34,640 nucleotides of DNA from Catajapyx aquilonaris (GCA_000934665.2 JYFJ02000999.1:62001-96640); one strand, 5' to 3'; shown: positions 1-32,622, counted from the first letter of the stretch. Translations and numbers: made by a program. Notes: generated by a model from the letters alone, not told the origin.

Positions 1-392
1 CGTAAGTCTCCGACAGTCTTCTAAGGAATAGATGCATCACAAAAATGACTATCAGTAGTACTGATTCACTTGGAAATGATTACTACTTCTTGTTTAGCCT
101 AACCTTGAGAGTAATTTTTGCATCAGCACATCGCATGTCAGTGACGTACCTCATGAGCTGCTTCCTGGTGAATGTCTAACGGATCCTGTTCAAAATGAGT
201 GACATTTGCCACAGTCACCAGATGCTCTTCTTCCACTGGTTCTACTTTCACATCCACTTCATCAATGGTAAGGCCCTCGTAGAACTGCGCACACGGCTCC
301 TCCTTCAGCCGCAACTTCCACTCCTCTTCATCCGTGGTAATGCTCCCTTCATCATCATCTTCCTCCACTTCTTTTTTGATTTCCAACGACAT
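1..392 (-). CDS. Gene A (partial, runs off the left edge): acidic N-terminal exons of a cluster paralog
   Basis: ATG at 392 (MSLEIKKE...EQDPLDI) after acceptor ttttccag. Donor GAG|gtacgt at 150. Next exon starts at 20 (ttag|AAGACTGTCGGAGAC) and is homologous to gene B exon 3011-2892. The zinc-finger exon is presumably outside the window. Confidence 0.75.
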
Positions 393-575
393 GTGCCTGG
401 AAAATAATGGAATCGAACGCTGTCTATTATTCTATTCTAATCTATGATCCTTCAATCAACTGGTTTTCAGAAGTTACTAAAGGCAGGTACGTACACTCCA
501 GGTGGTTTTCTTGCGTCCATACAAATTTGTCCTCCTTCCAACCCACAGCTTCCCACTGCTGTCCCTTCTCCTTCC

Positions 576-635
576 TCAGAACGAGGCAAAAGAGAAGGAA
601 AAACAAGCCGAAAGTGACTCCAGAAGAGACGCCAT
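576..635 (-). other. 19-codon uORF (MASLLESLSACFSFSFASF*) starting inside a YY1-type motif, gene A leader
   Basis: ccaagATGGCG at 635, in-frame TGA at 578-576. Near-identical copies at 3665-3606 and 12265-12206. Confidence 0.6.
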
Positions 636-772
636 CTTGGATTGGAATAAAAAAAGAAAAAAAGGGTGCATTCCCACCGCCGAAAAGGAAAAGGGTGCAT
701 TCCCACCGCTGAACAACGTACAGGGATGGGATTAAACGCTATTAAGAAAAGAACAGCGACAAGTAACCGCTA
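631..772 (-). promoter_or_regulatory. Subfamily-1 promoter module: YY1/Pho-like GCCATCTTGG, 2x GGGTGCATTCCCACCGC, AACGCTATT/AACAGCGA/GTAACCGCTA block
   Basis: Same ordered motifs recur at 3661-3800, 9796-9915 (degenerate) and 12261-12435, each immediately 5' of a paralog. Confidence 0.6.
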
Positions 773-1093: not shown

Positions 1094-3413
1094 CTAACAA
1101 TCATGTGGCTTTTCTCGTATGCGAGCGCAATCATGTCTTTTTAAAGCCATCGAGCGACTAAACTTTTTCCCACAAATATCGCAACTGTAAGGTTTCTCTA
1201 CCATGTGAATTCTGACATGGGCGGAGAGAGAAGAGGAACCCATGAATGCTGCGTTGCAAACGGGACAACTGAATGGTTTCCATCCGGGATGGATTTTCAT
1301 ATGCTTTTTCCATTGATGTGAATAACAAAATGATGTCTTACAAATGTGACAGGTGAATGGTCTCTCTCCTCTGTGCGAACGCATGTGTTTTTCCAAACTC
1401 CTTGGAAGTACAAACTTCGCTGTGCAAATCTGGCACACATGTGGCTTATCTCGGGTGTGAGCAATCATATGGTGTTTTAAATAAGGTGCGCGAATGAACT
1501 CTTTTCCACAAATATCAGAACCATCAGGTTTCTCTTTCGCGTAAATTCTGACATGTGCAGACAGAGCAGACATATCACTGAATAATCCTTTGCAACCCGG
1601 ACACTTAACTGGTTTCCTTTTACGGTGGGTTCTCATATGTTTTCTCAAACGTCTTAAATGACCAAATGATGCCTTACAAACCTGACAGCTAAATGTCTCT
1701 CCTGTGTGCGTGTACATGTGTGTTTTCAAACCAGAAGGCTTTGCAAACGTTCTCTGGCAAACGTGGCAAACATTCACATGTCTGTTTACCTCCCCATGAA
1801 CATGGTAAGGAACCTGTTTTGCTGCTAAATGTTCACATACATGTTGTGTAAAATCAGATGATTCTGTAGAAGGTTTCTTGCAAAATCGACATACAGAAAG
1901 TTGATTGGCTGCACATGTCTTCGCACTTTTTGCAGAAGTAGATTCTGCATAAGAACCTCCCGTCCCAGTGTTACATCCACTTGGCTCCCCTAATATGCCA
2001 ATGTGTATCACGGTGGACATTTTTAGCTGCTTCCTCGACTGCAAGTTTTCTTCATCGGTCTGTTGTTGTTCCTGCAATATGCAAAAATATACTCGATCAC
2101 CCCAAGGCATTGTCATCATTACAGTCAAGCACTTTTTTTTTTTTTCAGAGATAGTTTCTACATATGTGTGCAGAAATGAAAGATGGTTGTCTAATTTTCC
2201 TCTTAGAAAGTGGTCAAACTAGGAAGGTCCATTGTTGACAAAAATTCTGCACATTTTTAGCTGCTTTACAACAACCAAAATGTATTAAATCACTTGCAAC
2301 AGTTCAAAATAACAGCTTGCATTCCTCTCCTCGAGGTTTTTAAAAAGGTGATAGCTGACCTCTACATTGACCAAATCAATTAAAATGGGGCAGCCTAAAA
2401 TTGAGAATGTTAATCACTGTGCTTTTTGAAGGTAGTGACGTTCAAAAAAATAACATTCATGTTTTAATATTTATCAGAGGAGAGGAATATGATTCACATT
2501 AAATGTGAGTTAGGCTCATATTCAGAAACTGAAACATACGGCAATGCAGATTATCCATGCTAATTAATGCACAAGTGCGCCTGGAAAACCGAAAATCACA
2601 GATAATTCAAAAATTATACACCATAAAAATGGGATAGATTCAGAGATTTTTAACAAGCTGCTGAATATACTGTATGCTGCTTTCCTATTGTTTAATCAAA
2701 ATAATATAACGTACCATATATTTTTAATTTATGTTCTTTAAAAAAAGTTCACCTGACATACTGACATTCTTTCGAACTTTTTTTATTTCTAGCAAGTCTT
2801 TTTTGGCAATGCATGTCAATATGCAACACATACAGTGTACTTATTGCTTATGCCTAGCCTTGAATGCAATTTTTGAATGAGGACGAAATACCTCACGGAA
2901 GATTTCATGGGAAATGCCAAAGGTATCCGGTGCAAACTGAAGAAGTTCTTCTCCGCTGTCCACGTCTTCCTCCACTGGCTCTTGCTCATGTAAGTCTCTG
3001 ACAGTCATCTTCTGAGAAATACATGCATCACAAAAATTTCAGAATTGATTGCATAGATCTATCAGGAACACTGATTTACTGGAAATGATTACTACTTCTT
3101 GCTTACGCCTTGCCTAGTAATTTTTGTATCATGGCAGAATTTCCAAGACGCAGCCACAGTGACGTACCTCATGGACGGCTTCGTGGGAAATGTCTAAGGG
3201 ATCCTGTTCAAAATAAGACACATCTGCCACAGCGACCAGATCCTCTTCCTCCACTGGCTCCACTTTGACATCCTCTTCTTTGACGGTGGCAAGGCCCTCG
3301 TAGAAGGACGCAGAGGGCTCCTCCTTCACTCTCAGCCTCCACTCCTCCTCCGTGGTGATGCTACTTCCATCATCATCTTCCTCTTCTACTTCTTCTTTGA
3401 TTTCCAATGACAT
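1094..3413 (-). CDS. Gene B: acidic-N-terminus C2H2 zinc-finger protein, ~447 aa, ~9 fingers (several degenerate)
   Basis: Exons 3413-3168, 3011-2892, 2071-1094, all GT-AG and phase 0, frame continuous. CxxC...HxxxH repeats with TGE/KP-type linkers. Confidence 0.8.
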
Positions 3414-3605
3414 GATCCTACAAAATAAATCCCAGTCAGGTTACACAGTGTGACTATAGAAGCGAAGCACGGCCTGTTTCCATGGTTTGATTGCCATGGA
3501 CAAACAGACAGGCAGGCAGACTATCCAGTTGCCCCACACCCTTTGGCCTCCACCTTCCAACCTACCTCTCCCCACTGCTCATCCTTCCTGTGCCTTTTTC
3601 CTTCC

Positions 3606-3800
3606 TCAGAACAAGGCGAAAGAGAAGGAAAAACAAGCACAAAGTGACTCCAGAAGAGACGCCATCTTGGATTAGGAAAAAAAAGAAAGAAAAAGAAAAA
3701 GGGGTGCATTCCCACCGCCAAAAATAAAATGGGTGCATTCCCACCGCTGAACAACAGACGGGGACGGAATTAAACGCTATTGAGAAAAGAACAGCGACAA
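3606..3800 (-). promoter_or_regulatory. Gene B promoter/leader module with 19-codon uORF (3665-3606)
   Basis: Copy of the 576-772 module with GCCATCTTGG and 2x GGGTGCATTCCCACCGC. Confidence 0.6.
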
Positions 3801-4077
3801 ATAGCTGCTTTGAAGGCATGGCTCTCAATGGTGAGCTTACTAATCATAGTCATTGCTCTAAAAATTAAACTAAATGACATTAGTTTAAACCAATAAGTTC
3901 AAAAATGCTCCAAACCCCATCAGTTATCTCGCAACCTATAGTAAAAACCTGGACGGCTGAAAACGGGAAGTAATTGAGAGAATTGATCAGGAAATAATTT
4001 TTTTAATGATTCAGGCCTCCAAATAACGTGATATGCGCCACATGCGCGAGTTCATGGAAGTTCCAAGTGGAAGATTC

Positions 4078-6362
<2,285 letters not shown>

Positions 6363-6675: not shown

Positions 6676-7579
6676 GTTTGAACGAGGCGGTTTGCCCCGT
6701 TGCATGACGGGAAATATTACGTGTTGTGCAGCGTTGCCAAATTGTGCAACGTCTCTTTTCTTCTCGTGGCCCCATTTTTATCATCATTTTTTTCCCCCGA
6801 CATGTGTGCGAATATTCATTCGATGGGGGACATCGACCTACGCTGATATCAGACACAATGCAAGTTTCGCTGACCTATTTTTTTTAAAAAAAAAGGAAAG
6901 GCGGATAGATTAAATTATAGGGGCGGATAATCAAGTTCAAATAATAAACAGTTCAGATACCGCTTAATCGGCCATTGTGCCCCAATAAACGAAATTAACA
7001 TTTTCTTCAGCATAGCCAGAAACGGCCTGAACCTATGTGAAGGTTAAATACTTATTAATTAAATAGTATTAGCCCCGCCTTGTTTGGTGAGCAGTAATTA
7101 AAATTAAATGTTTGACCCACCGGTTCTTAATTAATAATTTGCTGGATTAAAATGGGGTGGGCCAATAAACCGGCAATAAACAGATATGATTACCAACCAC
7201 CTTATCGAGTAGTTGCACATGAGCCTTTGTCATAGCCACACTAATTATAGCTCATGGTGATATTGGGCAGCGTACGGATAGCAGCTCAGATAGCTTATCA
7301 GAAAGTGGTCAATGTTTCAGATAAGGACAAGTAAAATAACCTGTCAGACACTTCAAAAGTTTCGCGTCTGTAATATTCCTAAACAGTTTTATATGCTGCT
7401 GATGTCCTCTGATTGATGCAGGGAACTTGTCATATTTCATGGATTAACTAGCAAGATATTGCTAATTATCAGTTGATGAAAATTATCATCGAACCGAACT
7501 CAACAACAGAAAAAAAACCTTTACATAGCAATGAGATCAATGCGAATAACTACAGGGTGAGTCATTACTCATTTATTAT

Positions 7580-7800
7580 TTAATTTATGCTTAAAACTAG
7601 TAGCCGTACAAAATGCTACATTGCAAACGAGGCACTTATATGGCTTTTCTCCTGTATGAATGCGCATGTGTTTTTAACTCAGATGACCTACCAAACCTTT
7701 TCCCACAAACATCACAAGGATAAAACCTCTCCTTTGTGTGCCTTCTCATATAATGTTGGACCAAATCAGAAGAGTCAATAAATGTTGTCTTACAAACCTG
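7580..7800 (-). pseudogene. Decayed C-terminal fingers of gene C beyond the stop
   Basis: After GERPST-TGA the frame continues QVCKTTF...HYMRRH...CDVCGKRF, then a frameshift in an A run precedes [16 protein letters not shown]. Confidence 0.75.
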
Positions 7801-9573
7801 TCAGGTAGACGGTCTTTCTCCCGTGTGAGTACGCATATGCCTTGTAAGTACATATTTATGAACATATGCTTTCCCACATAAATGGCAACAAAATGGCTTC
7901 TCACCTGCGTGAATGCTCATATGCCTTTTCAAACCATATACACTTACAAATGCTGCCTTACAAACCTCGCAGATAAATGGCTTTTCACGGGAGTGCACCC
8001 AATTCTTATGTTCATTTAATTCAGTCAAGTCACTAAACAATTTCCCACAAAGGCGGCAAGGAAGTGGTGTAGGCCTATATTCAATGTGCACATACGAATG
8101 TTTGTTCAAAGCCAAAGTAGTAGTAAACTTTTTCTTGCAATGCTGACAACTATATAGAGTCAATCCTGCATGTCTTCTCATATGTATTTTCAAATTTGAT
8201 GAATCAGTAAACTTGGACTTGCAAATCTCACAACGGAAAGGTTTTTCACCAGTGTGACTTGGAATGTGTTTAGCAAGGGCAGAGACACATGCGAATCTTT
8301 CGCTGCAGTACAGACAACTATATGGTATTCCCCCTGCCTGCTTCCTCTCATCTACTGCCACATCAATTTGCAATTCATTGCATTTCGTGTCTTCCTGGGG
8401 ATTCCCTCCAACCGGTGGCGTAGTTTGTGTATCTGGATGATTCCACTTCACATTTTCAACACTATCCTTATCTTGTCCCTGAAAGATGCAAACATATCAC
8501 TTACAGTTGCCTGCATGATTGATATTCTCAATAAAATACATCCAACCGAACCCTTGTCACAAACTCGGACACTACAGGCAGATTCCACACACTGATCTGA
8601 TTCACATTCCTATCTAAAGTCCTTCTGTTCACGAGCAATAACCATTACCTGATATATTAGCAAATAATAATTCATCAACATCCTAATGATGTTCAGGAAA
8701 TTCAACTTTAGCACACTGCATGTGTACACACAAGCCCAGCAGTGAGATCACCAGTTCACCACTGTAATGGCAAGACTTGACATCGCTTTTACTTGTTGAA
8801 AAGTATTTATGAAAATTATAGAAAAAGGGTGCGGCACATTAACTGAGACTATTGCCGTAAATCTTGTTTTCACGTGCAAACTAAAATATTTCATTATTAA
8901 ATTGCATTGAAGTAGGATTCTATACGTGCATTTGAATAAGCCTACCTGCAGTTTAGGAACAGCACTGGGCTTCAGTGCCCGCCTCTTCTGGGGTACGTAG
9001 GGATATAGTGACTCCCTGTCGAAATGATCTATACACCCCCGATGATGTGCCTTGGGTGCATACGTTGGCGGTAAATTCAGCGCTGCTTGCCATTGGCGCA
9101 TCAAATGTTCCTTTCGACATGGAAATGAAAATAAACTGAGACGACCCTTGTGGCTGATTTCACTGCGCTGACAGACTACACAAAATCGACCATAGGAAGC
9201 ACCAACACCAGGAGCTTCCTGATCATCCAGCAGCGTCCGCATGTACGGGTATAACTGAAAAAGTCCAAAGTCATTGTAATATTTAGTAGCCCACTAGGGA
9301 CTAGGCCTAAGTAAAGTCATGACCCTGTACTTGTACCTCACTGGTGCCTTCATGTGCGAGTTCTAATGGATCAGCCTCGTAACCAGTGGCATTTGGAACG
9401 ATGAGCAGCTCCTCTTCCTCCATCTTAACCTCCTTGACATCCGCTTCAACTAACGCATGATGATTGAAGCATGCCGACGTGTCCTCCTTCAGCTGCAACA
9501 TCCACGTCTCCTCTACGTCAATGGTGTTTCCAACCACCTCCTCTTCCTTCACCTCTTTTTTGATCGCCAACAT
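7801..9573 (-). CDS. Gene C: acidic domain + THAP domain + 6 C2H2 fingers, ~407 aa
   Basis: Exons 9573-9337, 9254-8946, 8478-7801, GT-AG, phase 0. The middle exon has the THAP signature CVVC...LFSFP...W...CIDHF...LKPSAVP. A non-coding first exon ends at 9719 (gtgagt). Confidence 0.8.
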
Positions 9574-9718
9574 GGTCCTAGAAAATGTTTGTCAATCAGT
9601 TTAACATATGGGGGTAATTTTTGTCCCACTCATAGTTTAGTATGTACAGTACTAGTACGCGGGCCACATTCTGGAGTGCCTGCCTACCTTCCCCTCGAGC
9701 CACCCCTGCACGACTCAC

Positions 9719-9915
9719 CCTGAACCAGCACTTCCAGGCTCCAAAATCAAGCTCAAATCGATGGAAATGTGACGAACAAAGAGTGAGGAAAAGACGCCAT
9801 CTTGGATTGGGAATTTTTTGACGGGGTGCATTCCCACCCACGACACAAAGGCCTGCCAGGGAATCGATGGGACTAGGCGCTATTAAACAAATCACGCTAA
9901 ACTCAGTAACTGCTA
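9719..9915 (-). promoter_or_regulatory. Gene C first exon/promoter with 15-codon uORF (9800-9753, MASFPHSLFVTFPSI*)
   Basis: ccaagATGGCG at 9800, GGGTGCATTCCCACC at ~9824, donor G|gtgagt at 9719. Confidence 0.6.
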
Positions 9916-10199
9916 CTGAATAGCTGCTTCTCTATTAGGAAGCTATTTCAGATGATTAAATTATTTTTTAAAAAAAATCCTGTACCTGCAATTTTAACTA
10001 AGTGTTAATCATCGTATGCGATTTTTTTTGTTACTAATTAGAAGCTGGATGGCAGTTTCTTCTTGATACCATTTTGTTTTCTCAGCTCGTTTGTGAACAT
10101 CTGGTAAAAAAAGGGGGGAGGGGGACTTTTCAGTTCTGCTGGAATATCAATCTTTTTTTTTTCCATGTAATACAGTCACTCATTAACTAACAACAACAT

Positions 10200-10610
10200 G
10201 GTTTTCTCCTTTCACAAACATTACATGATTGTTACGACGCAATGCTCTCAGTCACTCATGAACTAAAATGCAAGTAACATCAAAATGCAATTTTTAATGT
10301 TCACTGTACTTTATTATATCTGAATGAGTAGCAGAAACAATTTAATTACCATCACATGGGTTTTTAACTATAGCTTTTGATGGTGGTTTGTGGGTTTAGA
10401 ATTTGACGACCCATAAAATACTATGTAGAGCTAGATAATGGGAGCTCAAATATTGACAGGAGCCGAAATTACAATCCTGTGTGAACCAACGTGTGTCTCT
10501 TCAAACTTGATGGATCGTTAAACTTTGATGGCCAGACCCGTGTGAGTTCTAACATGCATTTCCAATGCAGGTGAGCGATTAAACTTTTTACCACAATAAT
10601 CACGGCCGCA
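10200..10610 (-). pseudogene. Remnant of the 3' end of a C2H2 exon and its 3'UTR, paralogous to gene E
   Basis: 10469-10605 encodes PSKFNDPSSLKRHTLVHTGL, matching the end of gene E (13363-13530) with an internal deletion. 10200-10470 matches 13130-13370. Confidence 0.7.
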
Positions 10611-11105
10611 AGATTTTTTTTCTCCTGGATGGGCAGGACTGCAGGGTAGATCTTTAATTTTCCTAATGAATTTGGTCTAACTAGGAAGGTCCATTGTTCA
10701 CAAAGATTCAGCTGCTTTTCAGAAACCAAAGAGCACTAAGGCACTTGCAACAGTTCAAAGTAATTGCTTGCTTTCCTCTATGAGCTGTAAGGAAGAAAAT
10801 AGTATTGGTGGTATTCATAGTAATCTAATTTTTAAATATGGGATAGCCCAAAATAGTTGCTTCATAAATATTATATCTCTATATTGCCATTAATTAATTG
10901 ACTTATTCATACAGTGATTTTCTGGGTAATACAGTGTCTCATTCATCAGACATTTCTTATGTTATACTCCCTGAATGCCCTTTTGAATTGGTCAAAAGAT
11001 AGGGCTGCGTAACACCTTTTGCAGTAGTACTCACAATAGCCTTCATACAAAGTGTGTGAGCAGTGTTCACAAGAAAAATCAACTTTTTTAGGATTGTCTT
11101 TTCAA

Positions 11106-12099
11106 CTATAGCGACTCTGATAAGTGCGGCTGAAAGCCTAACTTTTCTACCTTCGGAAGAGCATGTGGCCGATTAGTATGCGTGCCTCTTCGATCACATG
11201 GAGATGTTAATCCCCGTTTCTTTTTATCAACTAGAACATCCACTTTCCCTCTTTTAATGCCGTGAATACTCATGAATGCAAGCTTGCACACACGACATTC
11301 AACTCCATTTGACAGAATAACACAGTAGGTAACAGTGCAGTTTCGCCCATTATCATCATTCTTGCTGGACCTGCGCTTGACAGGTGCAATCCTCACCAAA
11401 CTGAAGAGGTATGCTGCCTGAGAATTATAAGATTTATAACTATCTTTTCCATGTCCATTCCAATACTTATGGAAAATGTCCCTGCGGTCCTTATCAGACA
11501 CTCGTTGAAAGCATTTTAGTGGGCAGTGGCAGGCAGGCCCCATCTCTGCTGGTGGTTTGTCCTTCTGTGTACCTCGATACGTTTTGTGCTGTTGACCCAG
11601 AATTTGCTTGATACCACTTATTGACACACATTTGTTAGCAGACTTAAGTTCCTTCTGACTAGGTAGCTTGGGCTCTTCTGCATCTGTATTCTGAAAGAGC
11701 ATTGTAAAAAGGACGTCTTCAGTTTTCAGTGGTAGTGCTTTCTGCCCACTTGTTAACGATACATGAATCATAATTTTATAATTCAGTTTTCAGATAATCC
11801 TTGAAAGCAATTTTTGCATCACGTCAGAATTTAATAGACACCTCATGACAGTGACATACCTTATGGAAGGCTTCATGGGAAGTGTCTAAAGGATCCTGTT
11901 CAATATAAGACAGACTTTCCACAGCAACCAGTTCCTCTTCTGGTTCCACTTTGACTTCCTCATCATCCACTTCTTCTTTGAGGCTGGTAAGGCCCTCATA
12001 GAACTGTGCAGAGGGCTCCTCCTTCAGCCGCAACTTCCACTCCTCCTCCGTGGTGATGCTCCCTTCATCTGCCTCTTCCTTTTTGATAGCCAACGACAT
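11106..12099 (-). CDS. Gene D: acidic domain fused to a Chapaev/CMC-transposase-like N-terminal domain, ~274 aa, no intact C2H2 exon
   Basis: Exon 12099-11860 (MSLAIKKE...EQDPLD, donor AAG|gtatgt) and an exon from 11690 (ctttcag|AAT), phase 0. Motifs CHCPLKC, FHKYW, QAAYL, VKRR, RVCKLAFMSIHGI, DRRGTHTNRP. Alternative donor at 11151. Family assignment is from motif memory only. Confidence 0.65.
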
Positions 12100-12205
12100 G
12101 CTCCTTCGAAAGTGAAGAATCCCAGTGAGGTTGCGTAGTACGGAATCTAAAGCGCCAGTGCAATGCGCCCCACCCTTCGGCCGCCTTCCTGGTCCTTCTC
12201 CTTCC

Positions 12206-12435
12206 TCAGAACAAGGCAAAAGAGAAGAAAAAACAAGCAGAAAGTGACTCCAGAAGAGACGCCATCTTGGATTGGAAGAAAAAAGAAAGAAAAAGGGTGC
12301 ATTCCCACCGCCGAAAAGGAAAAGGGTGCATTCCCACCGCCAAAAAGGAAAAGGGTGCATTCCCACCGCCGAACTATGGACGGGGAATGGATTAAACGCT
12401 ATTGAGAAAAGAACAGCGATAAGGAGTAACCGCTA
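12206..12435 (-). promoter_or_regulatory. Gene D promoter/leader with 19-codon uORF (12265-12206) and 3x GGGTGCATTCCCACCGC at a 29-bp period
   Basis: Motif copies at 12295, 12324, 12353. Homologous to 576-772. Confidence 0.6.
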
Positions 12436-12617
12436 CCGATCATACACACCGCAGTTTAGCTATTCGCTTTAGTTATTAATTACTTTAATTAGGTCCCTAT
12501 TAACACAATGTCGCGCTTATTGCGGATAGCACGTTGGCACTCATTACCTGCAGGATGACAAGCATGCGGGTGACAACTCTTGGGTGCAGTGTGCTTAACA
12601 ACCTAAAAAAAGTCAAC

Positions 12618-13085
12618 TTACATAGCAATGAGATCAATGATGCAAATGATGAATTTTCATATGCATTTTCAAACCATATTGTTTATTAAATGTTCCCTTG
12701 CAAACCTCACATATATATGGCTTTTCACCTGTGTGCATCTGATTATGTTGTTTTAATTCAGTCAAGTGACTAAACAATTTCCCGCAAAGGCGGCAAGAAA
12801 ATGGTGTACGCTTATCTTCCACGTGCGCCAATGTAATATGTCTGCTCAAATCTGAAGTAGTAGTAAACGCTTTCTTGCAATGCTGACAACTATATGGTTT
12901 GGATCCTGCATGATTTCCCATATGTATTTTCAAATTTGATGAATCGCTAAACTTGGCCTTGCACATCTCACAGCGGAATGGTTTTTCCCCATTGTGACTT
13001 GGCATGTGTTTAGCCAGGGCAGAGACACTTACGAATGTCTTGCTGCAGAACGGACAACCGTATGGTATTCCCCCTCCCTGCTTAT
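12618..13085 (-). pseudogene. Orphan truncated copy of the gene C zinc-finger exon (5 fingers)
   Basis: GIPYGCPFC...GEKPFRCEMCKAKFSDSSNLKIH parallels gene C. The 3' flank TTACATAGCAATGAGATCAATG matches 7521. There is an in-frame stop just upstream and no 5' exons or promoter. Confidence 0.7.
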
Positions 13086-13362
13086 CTACCGCTTATCCGA
13101 CAGCTTATGAGGTATTGCATGGATTTTTGTGCTTTCACAATCATTACCTGATTGTTATGACGTAATGTCCTCAAGTCCCTCTCATAATTAAAATGTAAAT
13201 TAACAGTGAAATGCAATTTTTAAAGTTGACCGTACTTTATTATATCTGAATGAGTAGGAGTTACAATTTTATTGCCATTACGTGGGTTTAAATATTGCTT
13301 TTGAAGGTGGTTTGGGAGATTAAGGATGAGATGGCCCATAAAATACCGCAGATCATGGAAGC

Positions 13363-15643
13363 TCAAAATGACAATCCTGTGTGAACCAACATGTGTCTCT
13401 TCAAACTAGATGGATCGTTAAACTTCGATGGGCAGACCTGGCAGCCGTATGGTTTTTCGCCTGTGTGAGTTCTAACGTGCATTTTCAAGGCAGGTGAGCG
13501 ATTAAACTTTTTACCACAATAATCACAACCGTAAGGTTTTTCTCCCGTGTGAGTTCTGATGTGTGTGGTCAGAGTAGATGAATCACTAAACGATGCATTG
13601 CAAAACTGGCAGGCAAACGGTTTTTCACCCGTGTGAGTTCGCATGTGTCTCTTTAAATCGCCTGCGTGAATGAAGACTTTTCCACATTGATCACAACTAA
13701 ATGGCTTCTCTCCTGTATGAATCAGCATATGCCGTTTCACTTCAGAAGGCTTAGTAAACTCCTTTTTGCAAACCTGACAACTTAATGGATTCTCTTTTGT
13801 GTGGAGAAGCATATGTCGTTTCATGAAAGGTGACCTAGTGAACTCCTTTTTGCAAACCTCGCAACTGTATGGTTTCTCCTTTGCGTGAATTCTCAAATGC
13901 GCTTTCAAACTAGACAGATCGCTAAAAGTTGCCTCACAATACCGACAGCAAAATGGTCTATGAATCCTCACATGTGTCTCTAAATCAGCTGAGCTCCTGA
14001 ACATTTTCTCACACATACTGCAAGAATGTATCTTCTCTGATTCGTGCAAAACCATATGATTTTTCAAATCTGAAGTGCTCCCAAACTCTTCCTTGCAATG
14101 CTCGCAATGAAACGGTTTCCCTGTGGTCTCTATACTAATATGGCTGGCCAAATTAGATGACGACTGAACTCCCCCGCCAATGTCAGTCCCATAATGTCCG
14201 TCCAGTTGGATAACTTCCTTCCCATTTCCTTCACACACGTTCTCCTCTTCTTGCTGAAAGATGTCAATACATTAGTACCATAATATATTCCTTCCTTTCT
14301 GAGAATATAGGTTAGATAAGCATTTCTCAACTTTTTTACCATTGCAGATGGTACCAAGACAGGCTTTTAAAATTTGTATGGCAAAAATTTCGCTTTCATT
14401 TAATCAAGCTACCTGCGTACATAGTAGACACTGCCAGGGAGCATATACTACATAAGAGGCACAAACTTCGGTCAGCGCCATTGATTTCCGCGTCTCTCTG
14501 TTTGGGGCCGTTGCCAAGACTGGCGGCCATTTTGAAGTGTGGGCAACGCCAAGGAGGTATAAATAGGGTACAGGCAAAAATAGGGTCCGCCATCTTTGAT
14601 GGTTTTGACGGCCATGGCAACTATACATGGCAAGAACACGCGCGAATCAAAGATGCCGGACCCTATTTCAGCCTGTACCCTATTTTTACCTCGTTGGCAT
14701 TGCCCACACTTCAAAATGGCCGCCAGCCGTGGCAACGGCCCAAACAGAGAGACGCGGAAATGTTGTTGTTGGTTTTAAGGGAAATGCCTGGCTTGTATGG
14801 CTCTTTCGTATTGAGCCTTGGCAGCCAGGGGCCAGGAGTGTTATTGACCCTCCTTAGCCGGTGGGGCTGGGTAGGATGAGGATGATGTGGGTTGGAAGGG
14901 CTTGGACGGGGACGGGTGATGAGGGCGCTGTTCTCCCCAGCCGATCGCTGGGCAAGCCAACCGTGTCAGCTGGTTCGACCTGGTGCCTACATACATCGAT
15001 GGTCGGGCAAGCCCTTCGTGAAGACGCGGAAATCGAATGTTGGCGCCTCTTATGTAGTATATGCTCCCTGACACTGCCTTGTGATTTAATTTTGGCATGC
15101 TGTGTAGCTTATTCATTTGATTTAGAGTGATTCAAATGCTCACACACCTGACTGATTCTCTTCTCTGAAATGGCCAAGGGATCGTCCGCACCATCAGGGA
15201 CATCGGACAAGGTAAACGACGCCTCCTCTTCACCCTCCTCCACTTTAATGTCCTGCGCTTCACCTTCCGAATGGTAGTGAGAGGGCGACAAGGCCTCCTC
15301 CTTAATCCACGTCTGCTCCACACCAATGTCCTCATCATCTTCGCAGACATTGTCTTGACTTGAGGAGCCGGGTCCCTTCCAACTATGGATAGAGAAGTTA
15401 TCCTGTATGGAGTGACGCTTGTGATTGTATATTCTTGTAAGGGAAGCCTTCCTAAGGGCGCGAGCCCATGGAATAAAGAATAAACAAACAAACAAGCAAA
15501 TGTCCTCATCATCACACCTTTCTTCGGTCACCTCTGCCTTAACCGGCTTGATGCCCCTTAAGGAATTATAATTATCAAAATAACGTGACATGCAATGGGT
15601 AGTACAACGGATATGCTCACTTCGAATCATCTCCTGCCTCCAT
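13363..15643 (-). CDS. Gene E: acidic-N-terminus C2H2 protein, ~440 aa, 9 fingers
   Basis: Exons 15643-15621 (MEAGDDS, phase 2), 15556-15148, 14253-13363. Canonical TGEKP linkers in the C-terminal half. Confidence 0.8.
14435..15070. mobile_element. Foldback MITE, probably P/Galileo superfamily, in gene E intron 2
   Basis: 26-bp perfect TIR CAGGGAGCATATACTACATAAGAGGC, CA...TG ends, 7-bp TSD ACACTGC (14428-14434, 15071-15077), internal palindrome ~14485-14761. Confidence 0.85.
15340..15498 (+). mobile_element. 5'-truncated non-LTR retroposon 3' end inserted in coding exon 2 of gene E
   Basis: 15-bp TSD AATGTCCTCATCATC (15325-15339, 15499-15513). Ends in AATAAAGAATAAACAAACAAACAA. Confidence 0.8.
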
Positions 15644-15660
15644 CCCGGGCTCAGTTTAGG

Positions 15661-15855
15661 TCAAAATTGGAGGAAATAATGTAGGAAAATCACTTTCGGA
15701 ATGAAAAAGAACGACGCCATCTTGGAAATATTCGAGAGGGTGCGTTCAGAGACTCCCACACTGTAAAACGGCTAACGCGACGTAGCATCGCTGTTATTAG
15801 CAAATCGCTTCTCACAAGTAGCGGTTATCAGTGTACGCTAGTCGTTACTCGTTCA
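15661..15855 (-). promoter_or_regulatory. Gene E promoter/leader with 19-codon uORF (15720-15661, MASFFFIPKVIFLHYFLQF*)
   Basis: ccaagATGGCG at 15720. GGGTGCGTTCAGAGAC, CATCGCTG and GTAGCGGTTATCAG blocks are shared with genes F-I. Confidence 0.6.
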
Positions 15856-16613
15856 ATGAACTGAATTTATCAATTGATATGAAATCAATTTTAATCGCCG
15901 AGTGGTAAATATTATTAAGGCATCCGTGTGATAATTTCGCATATTTTTTTTTCCTTCTCTCTGTCTATGACTTTGGGCAAAAAAAATTATTTCATATACC
16001 GGTACATACATACTTTTAATTATAATTTACACAGAAACATTATAAGGCAAACTGGCCAGTTTATTTCTTCGGCGGTTACAATAATCCACAAAAAATGCAC
16101 CGTTTTACGGACAGGGGCAGAAAATTCTGACACTTGACAAATAGTATGCTTAATAGTATTTAATTAAATGGGAAAGCTTAATTATTAAGCTGTCCCACTT
16201 AATTTGCAAAGGGGGGGGGGGAGGGGGAAACTATCACGTCCATTAATTTCATCAGTAAGGTGTGAGCCTCGAATTATTTCAAAAAATTGTCATAATTTCT
16301 CTAATGGTAAACATGACATAGGCAGACAAATGAAATGGTGATTTTCGATGCAATTTTATTCCATTGCCTAACATTATATAGCAAAAAAAAAAAAAAATGT
16401 AAGTACATAACATGTCAATTAAAAATAATAATTTATTGTACAATCATGTGGCCTAGGTTCTAATCTGCAATGCACAATTTGCATGAACAAATCCAAGTCT
16501 TACATTTACATAGCTTCTAAATGTATTTTTACAAACCTAAAAACTATGTAGTTTCCCTGTGACGCTTTATCATGTCTTTTCCGAGAGATGATGCCGTGAC
16601 AAAATCCATTAAA

Positions 16614-19018
16614 TTAATTTTCTTGCGTATGAGCACTCTCATGCCTTTTTAAAGCCATGGCGTAACAAAACATTTTCCCACACACATCGCAAGAAAAGGA
16701 GTCCCCCCCTGGGTTCCTTCTGATGTGCGCGGTCAGATTAGAAGCATCACTAAATGTTGCCTGGCAAATGGGGCACCTGAACGGTTTTTCTCCCGTGTGA
16801 GTCCGCATGTGCGTTTTTAAACTACTTCCCTGGGTGAAGCTTTGCTCGCAAACAGGACATGAAAATGGCTTTTCTCCTGTATGACTCACAGCATGCCTCT
16901 TTAAAGCAGATGGGCTATAAAACATTTTTCCACAAACATCACAACCAAATGGCTTATCACCTGTGTGAGTTCTAGTATGTCTGTTTAAATCGGATGAGGT
17001 GTAAAACAATTCTCCACATGCATCGCAACCAAATGGCTTCTCACCTGTGTGCTTTCGCATGTGCGTGGTCAGAGTATAAGAGTCCCTAAATGTGGCATTG
17101 CAAATATGACAGCTAAATGGTTTTTCGCCAGTGTGAGTTTGCATATGTACTTTTAAGCCACCTCCCTGAGTGAAGCTTTTCCCACAAATAAGACAAGAGA
17201 ATGGCTTTTCCCCTGTGTGAGTCCTGACATGTTTTCTTAAATCAACCGCACGACTAAATATCTTCCCACAAAGATGGCACGATAACTGCTTCTTTCCTGC
17301 TCCTGTATGCATCAATGTATGTTGTTTCAAATCGGAAGGTAGATCAAACTCTTCCCTGCATATCAAACACCTAAATGGCTGCGCCCCAGAAGTCTCGGCC
17401 ATCTCTCTCGCCACGTGAGTTGTCACATTAAATGGGACACCAGCACTCAATCCTCTTCCATTGGGAGTCCCAAAAGGCACATGCAATTTCTTGACCTCCT
17501 TCAAATTTCCTGCACAGGTCCTTTCCTCTTCTCCCTGAAATATACAAGTATTTTAGTGGAATCCTTCACTTCACATGTGAATGGCTAATTGGCCTCATCA
17601 ATATCACCTTCTAATATAGTTACAAAGTCCTGATGTTGCTTTGAAATCGTGAATAGGAGTCATGATTGTTCTCATTGAACAACAACAAGTTCGAAATATT
17701 TGGATGTACTAATTTAATTGTGAGATTATCGCTGTCAATTGGGCATATCTTGGAGGGCAGCTTACACACCTTACTGATGCTTTTATCTGTAATGTCCAAG
17801 GGATCATCCGCATCTTCAGGTGCATCCGATATGGCGACAGATGCCTCTTCCTCCACCTTAATGCTGCTGATGTCTTGCCCTTCAACTTCTGAATGGTCAC
17901 GAAAGTGCGGCAAGATATCTTCCTCGTAATAACCCTCTTCATTCCCCTCCGTCTTAATGAAAATTGTCTCGTTCCTAAAAGAACAATGATACACTAATGA
18001 ATTGCCAAAATTTGGCGCAAACTGATTCTCATCATCACATAATAATTATATGAAACGCATTCCCGAAACATTGAGGCAGTGAGGTTGCCATGACGGGTCT
18101 GGTATGTAATACCGAAAGACATAATACAGACAGATTAAATTTCCGAAAGCTTTATTACCGAAAATATACGAAGAACATATACCTTTCCACTTTTTTCCCG
18201 TCCGTATTTTATCCCGTCCGTATTTTTTCCGTAGGTATTAGACCCGGGACCGGCCATGACATCAACAGTGATTTATTGTTGCTGATTCACTGTTCCCACA
18301 GCAGCATGGGGACGATGACATTCAACATTATCAAATTGCGCCATGGTAAAAGGCGAAGAATGGACTCTACTGCTACGTAGTAAATAATGGACGGTACATT
18401 AACAAATGAGGTGCAGTACTTGGGATAAAAATGGGCAGCAATAAGTGAACACCCATTTTCATTAAAGAAATTTCAGTGAACAAATGCAAGGCTCAAAAAA
18501 CCAATTTCTAAAACTGGAAAATAATGTTCGAATATCATTTTCCATTGGACCGCCAGGTTTTATTTTTGCCCCACTGTTAATATTACCGTGCTGTTAATAT
18601 TAACAAGTATTACCACTGTCAACAATCACAAATCGCTGTTTTCATTTGCATCGGAACTGTTCCACAACCATAGATTCAGACATACATTTTTTTTTTTTTT
18701 TAACCACGCTGAAAATATTATGATCAACATTTTGGGCATAATAGTATGAAACCAACAAAAGCTTGATTACATAGCTAGTTACTGTGATGTAAAAAAATTT
18801 GTTAAAAAAAAATGTCATGAGCAATATTCAAGCTCAATAATTTCCATCAATTTTCTAAGTACCCGGCAGTCTGTAAGTGCGACTGCCATTCCCACACCGA
18901 CCACAACGACCCATACTCACTCCGGATCATCCCCTGGCTCCATTCCAGGCTCAGATTTGGGCAGAATTTGAGAAAATAAGGAAGGAAAATCGTCTGCGGA
19001 ACGAAAAGGGGCCGCCAT
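16614..19018 (-). CDS. Gene F: acidic-N-terminus C2H2 protein, ~407 aa, 9 fingers (one lacks the last His)
   Basis: Exons 19018-18921 (MAAPFRSADDF...MEPGDDP, phase 2), 17974-17770, 17534-16614. GT-AG, frame continuous. Confidence 0.82.
18095..18252. mobile_element. Small MITE-like insertion in gene F intron 1
   Basis: Flanking direct repeat GCCATGAC (18087-18094, 18253-18260), GGGTCT/AGACCC inverted ends, internal short repeats. Absent from the paralogous introns of G and H. Confidence 0.6.
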
Positions 19019-19205
19019 CTTGGATTAATTATGGGCGCGTTCAGACTTCACCGACTGGTAAACAGCTGGACATAATAGCATCACTGCTATCATAAAATCG
19101 CCGCTACTCCTCACGTGTAGCGGTTATCAGAATAAGCTAGTCGTTACTCTGTCAAATTATCTATTTGATTGGAGTCAATTTAACTCGCACGTTATCGATT
19201 TCGTT
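19011..19205 (-). promoter_or_regulatory. Subfamily-2 promoter module (YY1-like CCGCCATCTT, GGGYGCGTTCAGA, GTAGCGGTTATCAG, DRE-like TATCGATW)
   Basis: Recurs at 22141-22340, 27126-27320 and 31963-32185. Perfect DRE TATCGATA at 32175-32182; TATCGATT at 19193, 22328 and 27308. Confidence 0.6.
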
Positions 19206-19558: not shown

Positions 19559-22148
19559 TTAACTACGTCCCTGAGCGAAGCTTTGCCCACAAACATGACA
19601 TGAATATGGCTTTTCTCCTGTGTGAGCTTGCACATGTATTTTGAAAGCCACAGCACCAGAAAACTTTTCTCCACACACATTGCAAGAAAATGGCTTCTCC
19701 CATGTGTGCTTTATTCGCATGTGTCTGGACCAAGCAGACAAATCACTAAATGCTCTCTTGCAAATAAGGCAGCTAAATGGTTTTTCTCCCGTGTGTGTAC
19801 GCATGTGCTTTTTTAAAGTACTTCCTTGAGCAAAGCTTCGCTCACACAGTTGACATGAAAATGGCTTTTCTCCTGTATGAGTTCGCATGTGCTTTGTTAA
19901 ACTACCTGCCTGAACGAAGCTTTGCTCACAAACATGACATGAATATGGCTTTACCCCTGTGTGAATCCTCACATGTGTCCTTAAAGAGGCTGAATCAGAA
20001 AACATTTTCTCACAAACATCACAACCAAAAGGCTTCTCGCTTGTGTGAGTCCTCATGTGTATGGTCAGAGTAGATGAATCCCTAAATGCTCTCTTGCAAA
20101 TCTGGCAGCCAAACGGCTTTTCTCCAGTGTGAGTTCGCATGTGTGACTTTAAACCACTTCCCTGAGTGAAGCTTTTCCCACAAATACGACAAGAAAATGT
20201 CTTTTCCAGTACGTGAGTCCTGACATGTTTGCGGGTCCCATAAGACACATCCAATTGCTTGGTCTCCTCTCCTCCCTGAAAGATACAAGTATTTCAGTGG
20301 AATCCTTCCGTTCACATGCGAATGGCTAATTGGCCTCATCGAGACCACTTTCTATAATGGTTACAAAGTGCTGATGTTGCTTTGAAATTGGTAGAAGTCA
20401 TTATTCTCAGTGTACCATGACAAGTTGGAAATATTTGGATGCAATATTTGCAATTTTCACTCCAAAATTGTCATCTGCACATGTTATTTTTAAACACGCA
20501 AACTTGCAAATAACCTGTTGACATGTGAACACTGATGAAATGTATGAATATTTTACATATTGTACAATGAAGTCTCTTTATTCCAGTGATCCCAGCTGAA
20601 TTGGAGAGAGTTTCTTAAATGTACTTTAATGTACTGTGAACTGTGGAAGATTATTATCACTGTCAATAATCAGGATTATCTTGCAGCTGGCAGCTGACAC
20701 ACCTTCCTGGTCCTTTTATCTGTAACGGCCAAGGGATCATCCACATCATCAGGAGCTTCCGACATGGCAACTGAAGCCTCCTCCTCCTCCACCTTAATGC
20801 TGCTGATCTCTTGCACTGGAACAACTGGATGCAGATGAAAGTGTGGCGAGGTGTCTTCCTCAATCCCAATCTTCCAGGTCTCCTCAAAAGTGATATCCTC
20901 ATCCTCACACACTTCTTCTTTCACTTCTGTCTTAATGGAAATTGGCTCCTTCCTAAAATAACAACAATACACGGTACACAATACACAAGTGAACTCTTTG
21001 TCAAAATTAGGGGCAACCGGATAAAGCAGTATCACATAAAATATTACTCGATAAAAAGCTTCCATGGACACAACATATTCATTCCGCACCCACTGCAGGG
21101 GTTGAAATATTCGGATGCAAAGGTGAAATTTGCACACCAAAATTGTCATCTGCACTCCAAAACTGAGCCTTGGAGTGCAACGTTTGCACTCCAATTGGCT
21201 CTCATGGCTATACCCAGTCAAATTAAAAATTAAGCACTCCAAGTAAGCGATTTGCACTCCAGATAGAAGTCTGGAATGCAAACTTTGCATCTGGACAAAA
21301 AAAATGTTAAATTTCGAGCCCTACCACTATGGCTAAGTGGTTTACCATGGCAACTGGTTACCATAACATCACAGTAACGCCAGCACAATGCCATGGTGAC
21401 GATGACATTCAACATTATAAATTCTGCCATGGTAACCAGACGGTGCGAAAAACGGGCTCTACCAAAGAGTTCTGCTATTATATAATAGAATACCTAGAGG
21501 AGGTACTCCCTATCCTTTTCCATTAGACAGGCTGAGGCAGCCGCCATCTTGTTGGAGGTCATATTGTTGTTCTAACAGTTGTCTAGCAACTGGGACAACA
21601 ACCAATAATGACAACTGGGCGACAATTAGTTCAATAATGTCAGGCGTCCGCCATCTTGTTGGAGGTCATATTGTTGCCTGCATTGTTGCCTGCCTCACGT
21701 ACATTTCAGGCCGAGTACCTCCTCTAGGTGTATATATAATATAGCTGAACTCTTTGGGCTCTACTGCTAGTATAATAATATAAATTCGGTAAGTACATTC
21801 AATGAGCAACAATTGAACATAATGCATATTCATAAATTTCAATGAACAAATGCACAACTGTAGAACAAAGTTCCGAAACTGGGAAGAAAATGTTTGAATA
21901 TCATTTCCATGGACCGTCACTTTCGTTTTTCCTTCCTCTTTTTGCCCAACTGGTGGTTGTCAACTACCAGAAATCAGTGTTTTGGCTAAACAACCGTCAG
22001 TGTGTGTGCCATGATCGGTGTCATCCCCTCCCACGATGCCCCATACTCACTTCGAATCATCCCCTGGCTCCATTCCAGGCTCAGTTTTCGCCAAAATAGG
22101 AGAGAATAAGGAAGGAAAATCGTCCGAGGAACGAAAAGGGGCCGCCAT
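19559..22148 (-). CDS. Gene G: acidic-N-terminus C2H2 protein, ~354 aa, 7 complete fingers, premature stop in finger 8
   Basis: Exons 22148-22051, 20952-20703, 20275-19559. Decayed finger sequence continues to ~19400. Confidence 0.78.
21096..21323. mobile_element. hAT-like MITE relic with TGCACTCCA subterminal repeats (second copy ~26350-26574)
   Basis: Ends CAGGGGTTGAAAT / ATTTCGAGCCCTA. No clean TSD. Related fragments at ~20422, 25481 and 31178. Confidence 0.5.
21463..21756. mobile_element. P-superfamily-like MITE (294 bp) in gene G intron 1
   Basis: ~45-bp imperfect TIR CAAAGAGTTC...ACCTAGAGGAGGTACTC, CA...TG ends, 8-bp TSD GGCTCTAC (21455-21462, 21757-21764). Empty site in gene H at 26726-26733. 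Confidence 0.88.
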
Positions 22149-22929
22149 CTTGGAATTCTTTGGGTGCGTTCAGAGACTCGCCTATTGGGAAGCCTTCCAA
22201 TCATATTCGCATCGCGGTTATTATTAAATCGCCGCTATTTCTTTTCCAGTAGCGGTTATCAGATGGCGCTATTCGCTACTCGTTCAAATACCTGCTCGTT
22301 AATTGGGAGTCAATTAAACTCGCACGCTATCGATTTCGTTGAAACCATTCCGAATTTTAAATAATTCTTTTTTGCAACGAATTTATTATAAGTTTATTTC
22401 TCCATAAACAAATACAGGTGTTCAAATAATGTGTGTTTTTTTTTGCAGAAACCTTATTTGAACAAATACAGTATATGTATTTGCTTTTTCCCTAAGTGGG
22501 CAATAATTTAATTGGAGATTACAATACACAAAAGTTTAAGCACTAATTAACGAATATGCACATTTAATTTGCTGTATAGGTATTGATGCATGCATTACTT
22601 GAACCAGCAAGGAAATAACTGCTGAGGACACTCATGCGTATAGCCCATTCTGACTTTCATCACGGAATGCTTTGTCTGCCTCAATGACTCGGGTCATGTA
22701 CATTTTGAAAAGTCGTTGAGTGCAATTTTAATTTTACAGTTTAAACGTGCGCATTAAATGTTTATAATACTAAGCATTAATGGTAATACTGGTGAAAACA
22801 AATCACTTTTGAAACCTATCTCATTATTCATTCACATTACAGTACCGGACTACAATCATATTTAATTTATATGAGGGGTGTGGTGGGAAAACGCGATAAC
22901 CCACAAAAGTGTAATTTTTTCGGGAGGGA

Positions 22930-25980: not shown

Positions 25981-27133
25981 CACCTCTGTCTTAATGGAAA
26001 TTGGCTCCTTCCTAAAATAACAACAATACACTGTACCCAATACACAACTGAACCCTTTGCCTAAATTAGGCGCAACCCGATAAAGTAGTATCACATAAAA
26101 TATGAAGCAATAAAAAGCTTCCATGGTCAAAACATACATCCTCACCACTCGCTCTCGAGGCTTCCACAACAATCACACCTTCCCCCCCCCCAAAAAAAAA
26201 AACAGCATCTCCCTTTACAATCAAACATATCAATGCTGCCAACACTCTTTCATCACTCTACTGCCCCTTCCCCTCAACCTTGGTGATTGTGGCAACGGAT
26301 AATATTGGCATCCTTTCTTCGCTTGCCCCATTTCATTCCGCACCCACTGCCGGGGTTGAAATATTCGGATGCAAAGGTGCCACTTGCACTCCAAAATTGT
26401 CATCTGCACTCCAAAACTGAGCCTTGGAGTGCAAAGTTTGCACTCCAATTGGCTCTCCTTTTAAATATGGCTATACCCAGTAATTAAAAATGAAGCACTG
26501 CAAGTTATCGATTTGCACTCCAGATTAAAGTCTGGATTGCATACGGAAAAAAAATGGTTAAAATTCGAGCCCTACCACTATGGCTAAGAGGTTACTATAA
26601 CATCGACAGTGACTATCATTGCTGGCTCATTAATTGTTTTCACAGTAACGCAAACACAATGTCATGGCGACGATGACATTCAACATGATAAATTCTGCCG
26701 TGGTAACCAGGCGGTGCGAAAAACGGGCTCTACTGCTAGTATAATAATGTAAATTCGGTAAGTACTTTCAATGAGCAACAATTGAACATGATGCATATTA
26801 ATAAATTTCAATGAACAAATGCCCACAACTGTAAAACAAAGTTCCAAAACTGGAAGAAAATGTTTGAATATCATTTCCATGGACCGGCAGTTTCGTTTCC
26901 TTTCTTTTTTTTTTCCAGTTTTTCGCCCAACTGCTGGTTGTCAACAACCACAGAAATCAGTGTTTTGGCTAAACAACCGTCAGTGTGTGAGTGCGATGAT
27001 CGGTGTCATCCCCTCCCACGATGCCCCATACTCACTTCGAATCATCCCCTGGCTCCATTCCAGGCTCAGATTTCGCCAAATTTGGAGAAAATAAGGAAGG
27101 AAAATCGTCTTTGGAACGAAAAGGGGCCGCCAT
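24529..27133 (-). CDS. Gene H: acidic-N-terminus C2H2 protein, ~382 aa, 8 fingers, late frameshift removes the last two fingers
   Basis: Exons 27133-27036, 26011-25762, 25329-24529. At ~24576, CCA ACA GCT replaces CCA TTC AGC of gene I (net -1). The ancestral stop lies at ~24393. Confidence 0.78.
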
Positions 27134-27441
27134 CTTGGAATTCGTTGGGTGCGTTCAGAGACTCCCCTATTGGGAAGCCTCCAATCCTATTCGCATCGCG
27201 GTTATCATAAAAATCGCCGCTATTTCTTTCCAGTAGCGGTTATCAGATGGAGCTAGTCGCTACTCGTTCAAATACCTCGTTAATTGGAGTCAATTAAACT
27301 CGCACGCTATCGATTTCGTTAAAACCATTCCGAATTTTAAATAATTCTTTTTTGCAACGAATTTAATTATAAGTATTTCTCCATAAATAAATACAGGTAT
27401 TCAAAAAAATGCGTGTGTGTGTGTGTGTGTGTGAGTGTGTG

Positions 27442-31970: not shown

Positions 31971-32622
31971 CTTGAAAATTTGTATTGATTTTTTATATTC
32001 TGGGTGCGTTCAGAAATCACGGCCTGCAAAGCGGCGTTTTTTCAAATCGCATCGCTGCTGTCATCAAGAGCCGCTAGTTCTCAACCAGTAGCGGTTATCA
32101 GATAATGGCGTTAGTCGCTACTCGTTCAAAGTGCTATAAATAATTATTGATTGGAGTCAATTTAACTCGTGCATTATCGATATCCGTTGTAGTCCTTCAA
32201 AATATTAAACTGCATCGAAATTGAAAGGTTTATTTCTCCATAAACATATACAGGTATTCAAAATAAGTGCAAAAAATGCGTAAAAAAAGCCATTATTAAA
32301 GTTGGTGCAATTTTTATTTTACTTATGTAGTTATGTACTTTAAATATGTGCATTTAACGTTTCAAAAAACTTATCATTAAAAGCAGCAATGTCAATACTG
32401 TTGATGGAGAAGAAAAAAAATTAATTTTGAAACCTATCTCATTCACTCACGCTATTATTTTGTCCCTTTTTTTTTTACACCGATTCACTTCATGCTGCCG
32501 CAGTGTTGTTGGGTTGTTGCAACAAATAACTGGGCACCACCGGTATGAGAGTGGCTAACTCCTAGCTGGAAATTTACCTCCAGTGACATAAAATGTATGG
32601 ATGGAATATACGAACCTGACAA

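Follow-up and report, generated by a model that had tools for sequence, protein, structure and literature searches.

Tandem clusters of C2H2 zinc-finger (ZNF) genes that carry a lineage-specific effector exon 5' of the exon encoding the fingers are described for the KRAB-ZNF genes of tetrapods and the FiNZ-ZNF genes of cyprinid fish, and the recurrent growth of ZNF families against transposons is attributed to effector exons of this kind (KRAB, FiNZ, and ZAD). FiNZ is rich in Glu, has its coding sequence in one exon upstream of the finger exon, shows no similarity to known domains, and can undergo intragenic duplication (Wells preprint). The capture of transposase domains by KRAB genes is documented in vertebrates. 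In KRABINER, a transposon occupies a ZNF gene's last intron, with a splice acceptor just upstream of the transposase open reading frame (ORF) and a 1-nt deletion within that ORF (10.1101/2020.05.07.082677); the same study required RNA support for every host-transposase fusion junction (Cosby et al., 10.1101/2020.05.07.082677). Such fusions are known widely. Here, a C2H2 cluster in a 34,640-nt stretch of Catajapyx aquilonaris DNA (GCA_000934665.2 JYFJ02000999.1:62001-96640; hereafter the window, with positions counted from its first letter) is compared with these systems, with the focus on four paralogs, A to D.

On the minus strand of the 34.6-kb window lie some ten C2H2 zinc-finger genes or fragments of such genes. 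The most probable reading, at a probability of roughly 0.6, is a tandem ZNF cluster that evolves by birth and death and in which a phase-0 intron admits inserts, with C as a working gene and D as a decaying paralog. A previous sequence-only reading had gone further and proposed an acidic effector exon that repeatedly captures transposase DNA-binding domains, possibly to target cognate elements, a stronger interpretation that the data bear out only in part.

A Common 5' Module in Paralogs A to D

Paralogs A to D, all on the minus strand, have in common a promoter, a short leader intron that ends 4 nt before the ATG, and an acidic exon. An alignment of the four modules (A 100-800, B 3090-3860, C 9300-9950, and D 11800-12460) has a mean column identity of 68%, and the promoter motifs are located upstream of these four genes only, which upholds the earlier proposal of a shared promoter, leader, and acidic exon with a phase-0 donor. 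The motif GGTGGGAATGCACCC occurs eight times in the window, always upstream of A to D (2, 2, 1, and 3 copies, respectively; shuffling expects 0), and CCAATCCAAGATGGCGTCT occurs once per paralog (4 matches with up to 3 mismatches; 0.03 expected). All four acidic exons are ATG-initiated open frames of 79-82 codons that end in phase 0 and are followed by GT, and their Asp+Glu content is 27-35%. The module comprises a promoter in which GGTGGGAATGCACCC repeats accompany a CCAAT/AAGATGGCG box, then a non-coding leader exon and an acidic exon of ~80 codons, with the following features:

150..392, minus strand: acidic exon of paralog A (81 codons; ATG at 392, donor GT after 150)
564..772, minus strand: promoter module of paralog A (two copies of GGTGGGAATGCACCC and CCAATCCAAGATGGCGTCT)
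3168..3413, minus strand: acidic exon of paralog B (82 codons)
9792..9838, minus strand: promoter motifs of gene C (one copy of GGTGGGAATGCACCC and the CCAAT/AAGATGGCG box)
9337..9577, minus strand: acidic exon of gene C (ATG at 9573; 79 codons; three psi-K-x-E motifs)
12184..12435, minus strand: promoter module of paralog D (three copies of GGTGGGAATGCACCC; 29-nt tandem)
11860..12099, minus strand: acidic exon of paralog D (80 codons; donor AAG/GTATGT)

The acidic exons of C and D match no Pfam family at E ≤ 1, which rules out KRAB, SCAN, and zf-AD (ZAD) and sets the exon apart from these effectors. Among the longer proteins of a 5.8-billion collection, none of 147 candidates matches the acidic exon, and no usable cluster match was found in the Atlas. 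The exon is apparently undescribed in the resources searched. One protein with an acidic N-terminus, P0009, was considered as a relative and rejected (no similarity, E 4.5). Each of the four acidic exons contains 3-4 psi-K-x-E motifs, compared with 0.4-0.6 in shuffles; psi-K-x-E is the SUMO-acceptor consensus, which offers a lead to function rather than a result. From these motifs and the analogy with KRAB and FiNZ we infer that the acidic N-terminus may act as an effector, through SUMO-dependent repression or the recruitment of a cofactor. The likeness to FiNZ lies in the Glu-rich, single-exon character, and the acidic exon has ~80 codons where FiNZ has 28.

The acidic exon ends in phase 0 and the finger exon likewise starts in phase 0, so that an open segment of phase 0/0 that has splice sites and falls into the intron between them can be included with the frame kept. 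Three occupants of this intron can be distinguished: a half-duplicate of the acidic exon in B, a THAP exon in C, and the 5' third of a dead DDE-transposase gene in D. As had been claimed, the second exons are in frame, with 40 codons in B (the start being also present in A, from base 20), 103 codons in C, and 194 codons to the stop in D. The second acidic exon of A begins at bases 20-1 and is cut off by the end of the window. The 40-codon exon predicted in B partially duplicates the acidic exon's 3' half (EPVEE..., ...ISHE...E) and is comparable to the intragenic duplication described for FiNZ. The two predicted downstream exons of B are:

2892..3011, minus strand: exon 2 of paralog B (40 codons, bordered by AG and GT, phase 0/0, read from sequence)
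1094..2071, minus strand: C2H2 finger exon of paralog B (acceptor AG 2073-2072, stop 1094-1096)

Gene C Joins the Acidic Exon to a THAP Domain and C2H2 Fingers

The transcript evidence consists of contigs of one public run, X1, on 7000-16000. The kind of run is not on record, it has a third of the sampled words of 7800-12500, and its contigs cannot show strand or level and drop rare forms. The X1 contigs join the leader, the acidic exon, the THAP exon, and the C2H2 exon of gene C, with the two predicted junctions 9337>9254 and 8946>8478 reproduced exactly; the third junction that had been predicted, 11860>11690 in paralog D, was not seen among the listed contigs. The stretches skipped are 9578-9718 (141 nt), 9255-9336 (82 nt), and 8479-8945 (467 nt), and all three read CT..AC on the plus strand, that is, GT..AG on the minus strand. 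The junction contigs have 484 and 301 letters and differ from the window at 0-1 positions, and an intron of the neighboring gene (15383-15620) is skipped likewise. That the contigs are spliced argues for cDNA, a processed DNA copy being not formally excluded. Gene C is a working spliced gene with the following parts downstream of its promoter:

9578..9718, minus strand: leader intron of gene C (141 nt, removed in an X1 contig; the leader exon ends at 9719)
8946..9254, minus strand: THAP exon of gene C (103 codons, phase 0/0, signature and AVP intact, unique in the window)
7801..8478, minus strand: C2H2 finger exon of gene C (225 codons and stop, 5-6 finger matches, joined to the THAP exon by a contig)

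The middle exon encodes a full THAP domain, as the sequence-only reading had recognized (PF05485, E 1.7e-10, 42 bits against a gathering cut-off of 23.9), with exon residues 25-102 aligned to profile positions 1-86 of 87. The THAP signature is C-x2-4-C ... C-x2-H together with a C-terminal AVP motif, and the translated exon contains both the C-x2-C ... C-x2-H zinc signature and AVP (FCVVC ... GCIDHF ... SAVPKL). The nearest solved chain is THAP1 (E 0.013), with FP, W, C..HF, and AVP aligned. Gene C shares with THAP1-like factors a full-length C2CH domain with AVP, but the domain is internal, between the acidic exon and the C2H2 array, rather than N-terminal. The finger exon matches zf-C2H2 (E 3e-23, 5 stretches) and zf-H2C2_2 (E 1.4e-31, 6 stretches). 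The product of ~407 amino acids contains an acidic domain, the THAP domain, and ~6 C2H2 fingers, which makes it a sequence-specific DNA binder with two kinds of zinc-dependent module.

Nothing else in the window corresponds to the segment 8344-9481, which includes the THAP exon together with its two flanking introns. None of 90 candidates among longer proteins is a relative of the THAP exon, and its flanks contain no transposase remnant, terminal repeat, or second copy within the window. A transposon origin of the THAP exon, which had been suggested earlier, could not be shown: relatives among longer proteins number 0/90, and in the window the only convincing match of the exon is to itself.

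Finger-like sequence continues for ~200 nt beyond the stop codon of gene C (7603-7800, minus strand; blastn to other finger exons). This remnant suggests that a premature stop or a change of frame may have shortened the finger array of C.

Paralog D Carries the Truncated 5' End of a Transposase Gene

Paralog D has a specific insert at ~10780-11805. Its ORF corresponds to the N-terminal Cys-rich (CxC...C...C) domain of a widespread arthropod transposase-like family, identified by HMMER among 1.84 billion representatives. The features downstream of the acidic exon are:

11109..11690, minus strand: predicted exon of paralog D (194 codons to the stop, in phase with the acidic exon; predicted acceptor ...CTCTTTCAG)
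10958..11122, minus strand: frame-shifted continuation of the D transposase ORF (in-frame TGA; homology ends at about residue 213 of 589)
10197..10779, minus strand: remnants of the D finger exon (frames broken)

The acceptor predicted at 11691/11690 (CTCTTTCAG/AAT) is of good quality and in phase; it and the donor of the acidic exon are both in phase 0, which by prediction places the transposase domain in frame with the host exon. All 17 family proteins compared match 11663-11118 in the same frame as the predicted exon, and two of them continue in another frame (11122-10958), across an in-frame TGA that stands in place of the SHYSR motif's conserved Arg. The catalytic region is matched at D by none of the 17 proteins, and the RNase H-like DUF7869 core is absent from the window; the single other window match to family proteins (31046-30948, E 0.007) lies in an unrelated finger exon. 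Proteins with DUF7869 have ~600 residues, whereas D contains approximately the first 213, with a frameshift and a stop, and because nothing beyond this point is present, the catalytic core is missing. No terminal inverted repeats were found around the fragment. Of the finger exon of D, a remnant at 10655-10779 matches the intron just upstream of the finger exon of B, and another at 10197-10618 matches the last one or two fingers and the 3' flank of the exon at 13118-13541.

No contig joining 11860 to 11690 was seen among the listed X1 contigs (8/130 pieces and 6/52 loose ends, with 11515-11815 uncovered), a result that says nothing either way. Every contig over the D acidic exon differs from the window at 11998, and an in-frame ATG at ~11771 would let the D fragment be read alone. 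Because the transposon copy is broken and truncated and the finger exon of the paralog itself has decayed, the fragment is possibly debris; that it is debris in a dying paralog, with incidental chimeric transcripts at most, is fairly probable. A transcript that fuses the acidic exon to the N-terminal domain of the transposase would be anatomically possible, and would more likely be incidental than selected.

The DUF7869 Family Resembles DDE/D Transposases and Integrases

At E ≤ 1e-3 the D exon has 966 protein matches, of which 134 also pass E ≤ 1e-10 (the best at 1.9e-27, none reaching 1e-30), and the D ORF is 42-45% identical to the closest family members. DUF7869 lies C-terminal to the matched domain in 15 of the 27 longest or most complete hits, and typical family members have 600-680 amino acids. 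A full-length member used as query found 157 relatives, the named ones being "uncharacterized" or "DUF7869 domain-containing." The hosts are beetles, flies, a planthopper, and a cockroach, a single genome often containing many copies, and there is one krill match; Atlas clusters near the D exon are annotated as "hypothetical protein" only, with Arthropoda as the commonest taxon. The D exon itself matches no Pfam family, the 27 long relatives match none besides DUF7869 at E ≤ 1e-3, a PDB profile search with 15 full-length family proteins gave no hits at E ≤ 10, and the name DUF7869 occurs in no searchable paper.

An AlphaFold model of one family member, built on a 58-sequence alignment, reached a predicted local distance difference test score (pLDDT) of 88.6. 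Foldseek gives 8 matches for it at E ≤ 1e-3 and ranks IstA, foamy-virus integrase, TnsB, and Mos1 as the best, and residues 315-488 superpose on retroviral integrase cores (Z 10.6, root-mean-square deviation 3.1 Å, 133 aligned residues) and also on those of Mos1 (Z 9.3) and Metnase (Z 9.1). Three Asp residues of the same core, D336, D411, and D453, are invariant, and at least 90% of the 58 family sequences have E460. Judging from this model, the DUF7869 family is a DDE/D transposase or integrase-like enzyme whose N-terminal Cys-rich domain is distinct; in the close spacing of its acidic residues and in its nearest folds it is more reminiscent of integrase or mariner-type cores. The D module is homologous to the N-terminal domain of a transposase-like family, as its 966 matches indicate, and the Chapaev/CMC-like label once given to it is not confirmed: the exon has no Pfam match, its relatives carry DUF7869 only, and the folds are those of integrases, Mos1, and Metnase. 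A link to the fungal KDZ/CxC transposases is at most conceivable; no CxC or KDZ Pfam family appeared in the scans.

For the fold of the Cys-rich domain, Foldseek found nothing at E ≤ 1e-3, and a wider structure comparison gave a best Z of 3.6, with helix-turn-helix entries at ~3 (the SETMAR DNA-binding domain at Z 3.4), values that are too weak to assign a fold. DNA binding by this domain would follow from its position in the transposase alone. Two kinds of unusual architecture were seen among the library proteins. P0073 (342 amino acids, from another organism) has a THAP domain at its N-terminus (Pfam E 1.1e-6) together with an acidic linker and the Cys-rich domain of the DUF7869 family, and is the only one of 54 scanned family proteins with a THAP domain; it makes a common transposon source of both modules conceivable and is a curiosity, no more. 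P0001, P0003, P0005, P0008, and P0013 contain 2-7 tandem Cys-rich domains and no DUF7869 core, and may be mis-assembled arrays or domesticated multi-domain proteins.

Alternative Explanations

Several observations weigh against the reading of a birth-and-death cluster with a working C and a decaying D. All RNA evidence comes from a single run of unrecorded kind, the four paralogs are non-independent samples for the psi-K-x-E counts, and the acidic exon is without family, fold, or homolog in Pfam, among the longer proteins, and in the Atlas, an effector role for it being pure inference. At D, no damage is apparent in the promoter, leader acceptor, ATG, or donor, the ORF stays open over 227 codons, and the domain is modeled confidently (pLDDT 85.8, predicted template modeling score 0.77) and keeps 8/8 nearly invariant residues. 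Both lesions fall directly after the domain, within the final ~165 of the ~706 bases with homology (a chance of ~1 in 20, calculated post hoc), and such a pattern is also expected of a DNA-binding-domain capture under selection. In addition, zero-difference contigs over 10922-11162 and 11216-11450 place this stretch or an identical copy in the run; they could represent a terminal exon with its 3' untranslated region, unspliced RNA, or an identical copy elsewhere. The corresponding alternative is that D is a selected host-transposase fusion gene, a counterpart of KRABINER, in which the frameshift trims the product to the domain and the product binds and regulates cognate transposons. The fragment has the orientation of the gene and sits phase-compatibly in the effector-to-finger intron, its strong predicted acceptor lies 9 codons upstream of the start of family homology, the intact domain (8/8 residues, pLDDT 85.8) has lesions only beyond it, and the zero-difference contigs cover the ORF and its 3' side. 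The route published for KRABINER is identical in outline: in both cases a transposon lies in the effector-to-finger intron, the acceptor is at the start of the ORF, an indel shortens the product, and the captured part is the N-terminal region, presumed to be the DNA-binding part of transposases. D is unlike KRABINER in that its parental gene has decayed, its junction is predicted only, its donor is of the DUF7869 type and not mariner, and its setting is arthropod-like and not vertebrate. With the parental finger exon gone there is no sign of a maintained host gene; moreover, no listed contig joins 11860 to 11690, the best fold match of the putative DNA-binding Cys-rich domain reaches Z 3.6 only, and the ATG at ~11771 permits the fragment to be read on its own. 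A selected fusion at D is considered unlikely. Of the KRAB-transposase-like capture proposed earlier, the anatomy of D, which mirrors the published route, stands, with a junction that is predicted.

The THAP exon of C could likewise have been captured from a THAP-bearing element, so that the intron would have recruited transposase domains repeatedly. THAP is the DNA-binding domain of the P-element transposase, the segment 8344-9481 has no counterpart in the other paralogs of the window, which fits an insertion, and P0073 joins a THAP domain (E 1.1e-6) to a D-type Cys-rich domain. THAP domains are, however, also common in ordinary host proteins, the relatives among longer proteins number 0/90, the exon lacks a flanking transposase remnant, terminal repeat, or second copy, and only 1/54 scanned family proteins carries THAP; a transposon source for this exon is doubtful. 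Distinctly improbable is the combined proposal that the acidic-exon ZNF subfamily is a recurrent acceptor in which the THAP domain of C and the DUF7869-type domain of D are both captures, with D as a KRABINER-like regulator. The claim of repeated capture comes down to one verified non-ZNF exon (THAP) and one unverified transposon fragment (D): the THAP occupant is certainly expressed in protein, the D occupant is certainly transposon-derived, and neither is shown to be both. Finally, the spliced contigs might derive from a processed retrocopy or a close paralog elsewhere, since the kind of run is not on record, the contigs show neither strand nor level, and 61 of the 111 contigs in the region are only 90-95% alike. 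Against this, the three junction contigs have 0-1 differences over 301 and 484 letters and break exactly at the GT..AG sites of this locus, and a fourth intron, that of the neighboring gene (15383-15620), behaves likewise, so that an origin outside this locus is very improbable. Under the preferred reading of a birth-and-death cluster, the locus contains one candidate KRABINER-like capture and not a demonstrated recurrent capture system.

Other Features of the Cluster

An intact-looking alpha-tubulin gene (5712-4078, minus strand; Pfam Tubulin and Tubulin_C) is located between paralogs B and C. Its coding sequence includes two long exons (5335-5712 and 4078-5226), and the initiator Met is apparently on a separate upstream exon. 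Just 5' of this gene, a 64-nt tandem repeat (5790-6251; 7.1 copies, 92% matches) yields long spurious ORFs in several frames.

An orphan finger-exon fragment at 12634-13092 (minus strand) is 82% identical to the finger exon of gene C (7910-8343). Its first ~135 nt and an acceptor are missing, no 5' exons belong to it, and it borders directly on the upstream gene's 3' flank; it is a relic of the segmental duplication behind C and D. Two P-like miniature inverted-repeat transposable elements (MITEs) had been proposed for the window. One MITE-like inverted-repeat element was detected, at 14426-15079; its terminal inverted repeats measure 41 nt (88%), and a 99-nt hairpin lies inside it. The element lies inside the intron that separates an acidic exon from the finger exon 14271-13363, and the highest contig depth of 7000-16000 is found there, as expected of a repeat.

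A more distant acidic exon in the same style (IK[TV]E ... IKVEEEE ... DDPL) occurs in the window's remaining genes (15.1-33.6 kb), which are without the promoter motifs of A to D. Acidic exons of this second type at 20676-21320, 25678-26172, and 31376-31789 (minus strand) are nearly identical to each other, and their downstream finger exons are alike too; whole genes have been duplicated here in tandem, and recently. A short interspersed repeat with similar ORF translations occurs in four copies (18847-19047, 21986-22234, 26980-27186, and 31838-32041), which sit in the spacers separating the type-2 ZNF genes.

Implications

Gene C is a verified case in which an apparently undescribed acidic exon shares one transcript with two kinds of DNA-binding module. 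Paralog D offers a snapshot of what may be a very early or failed transposase capture in the A-D subfamily. The cleanest by-product of the analysis is the placement of the unnamed DUF7869 family of arthropods among the RNase H-type transposases, with a new N-terminal domain. If the D fusion were real, repressors that convergently combine an effector with a transposase domain would become testable outside the vertebrates, and if the capture reading were true, effector/transposase fusion would extend to an invertebrate ZNF family with an unrelated effector domain.

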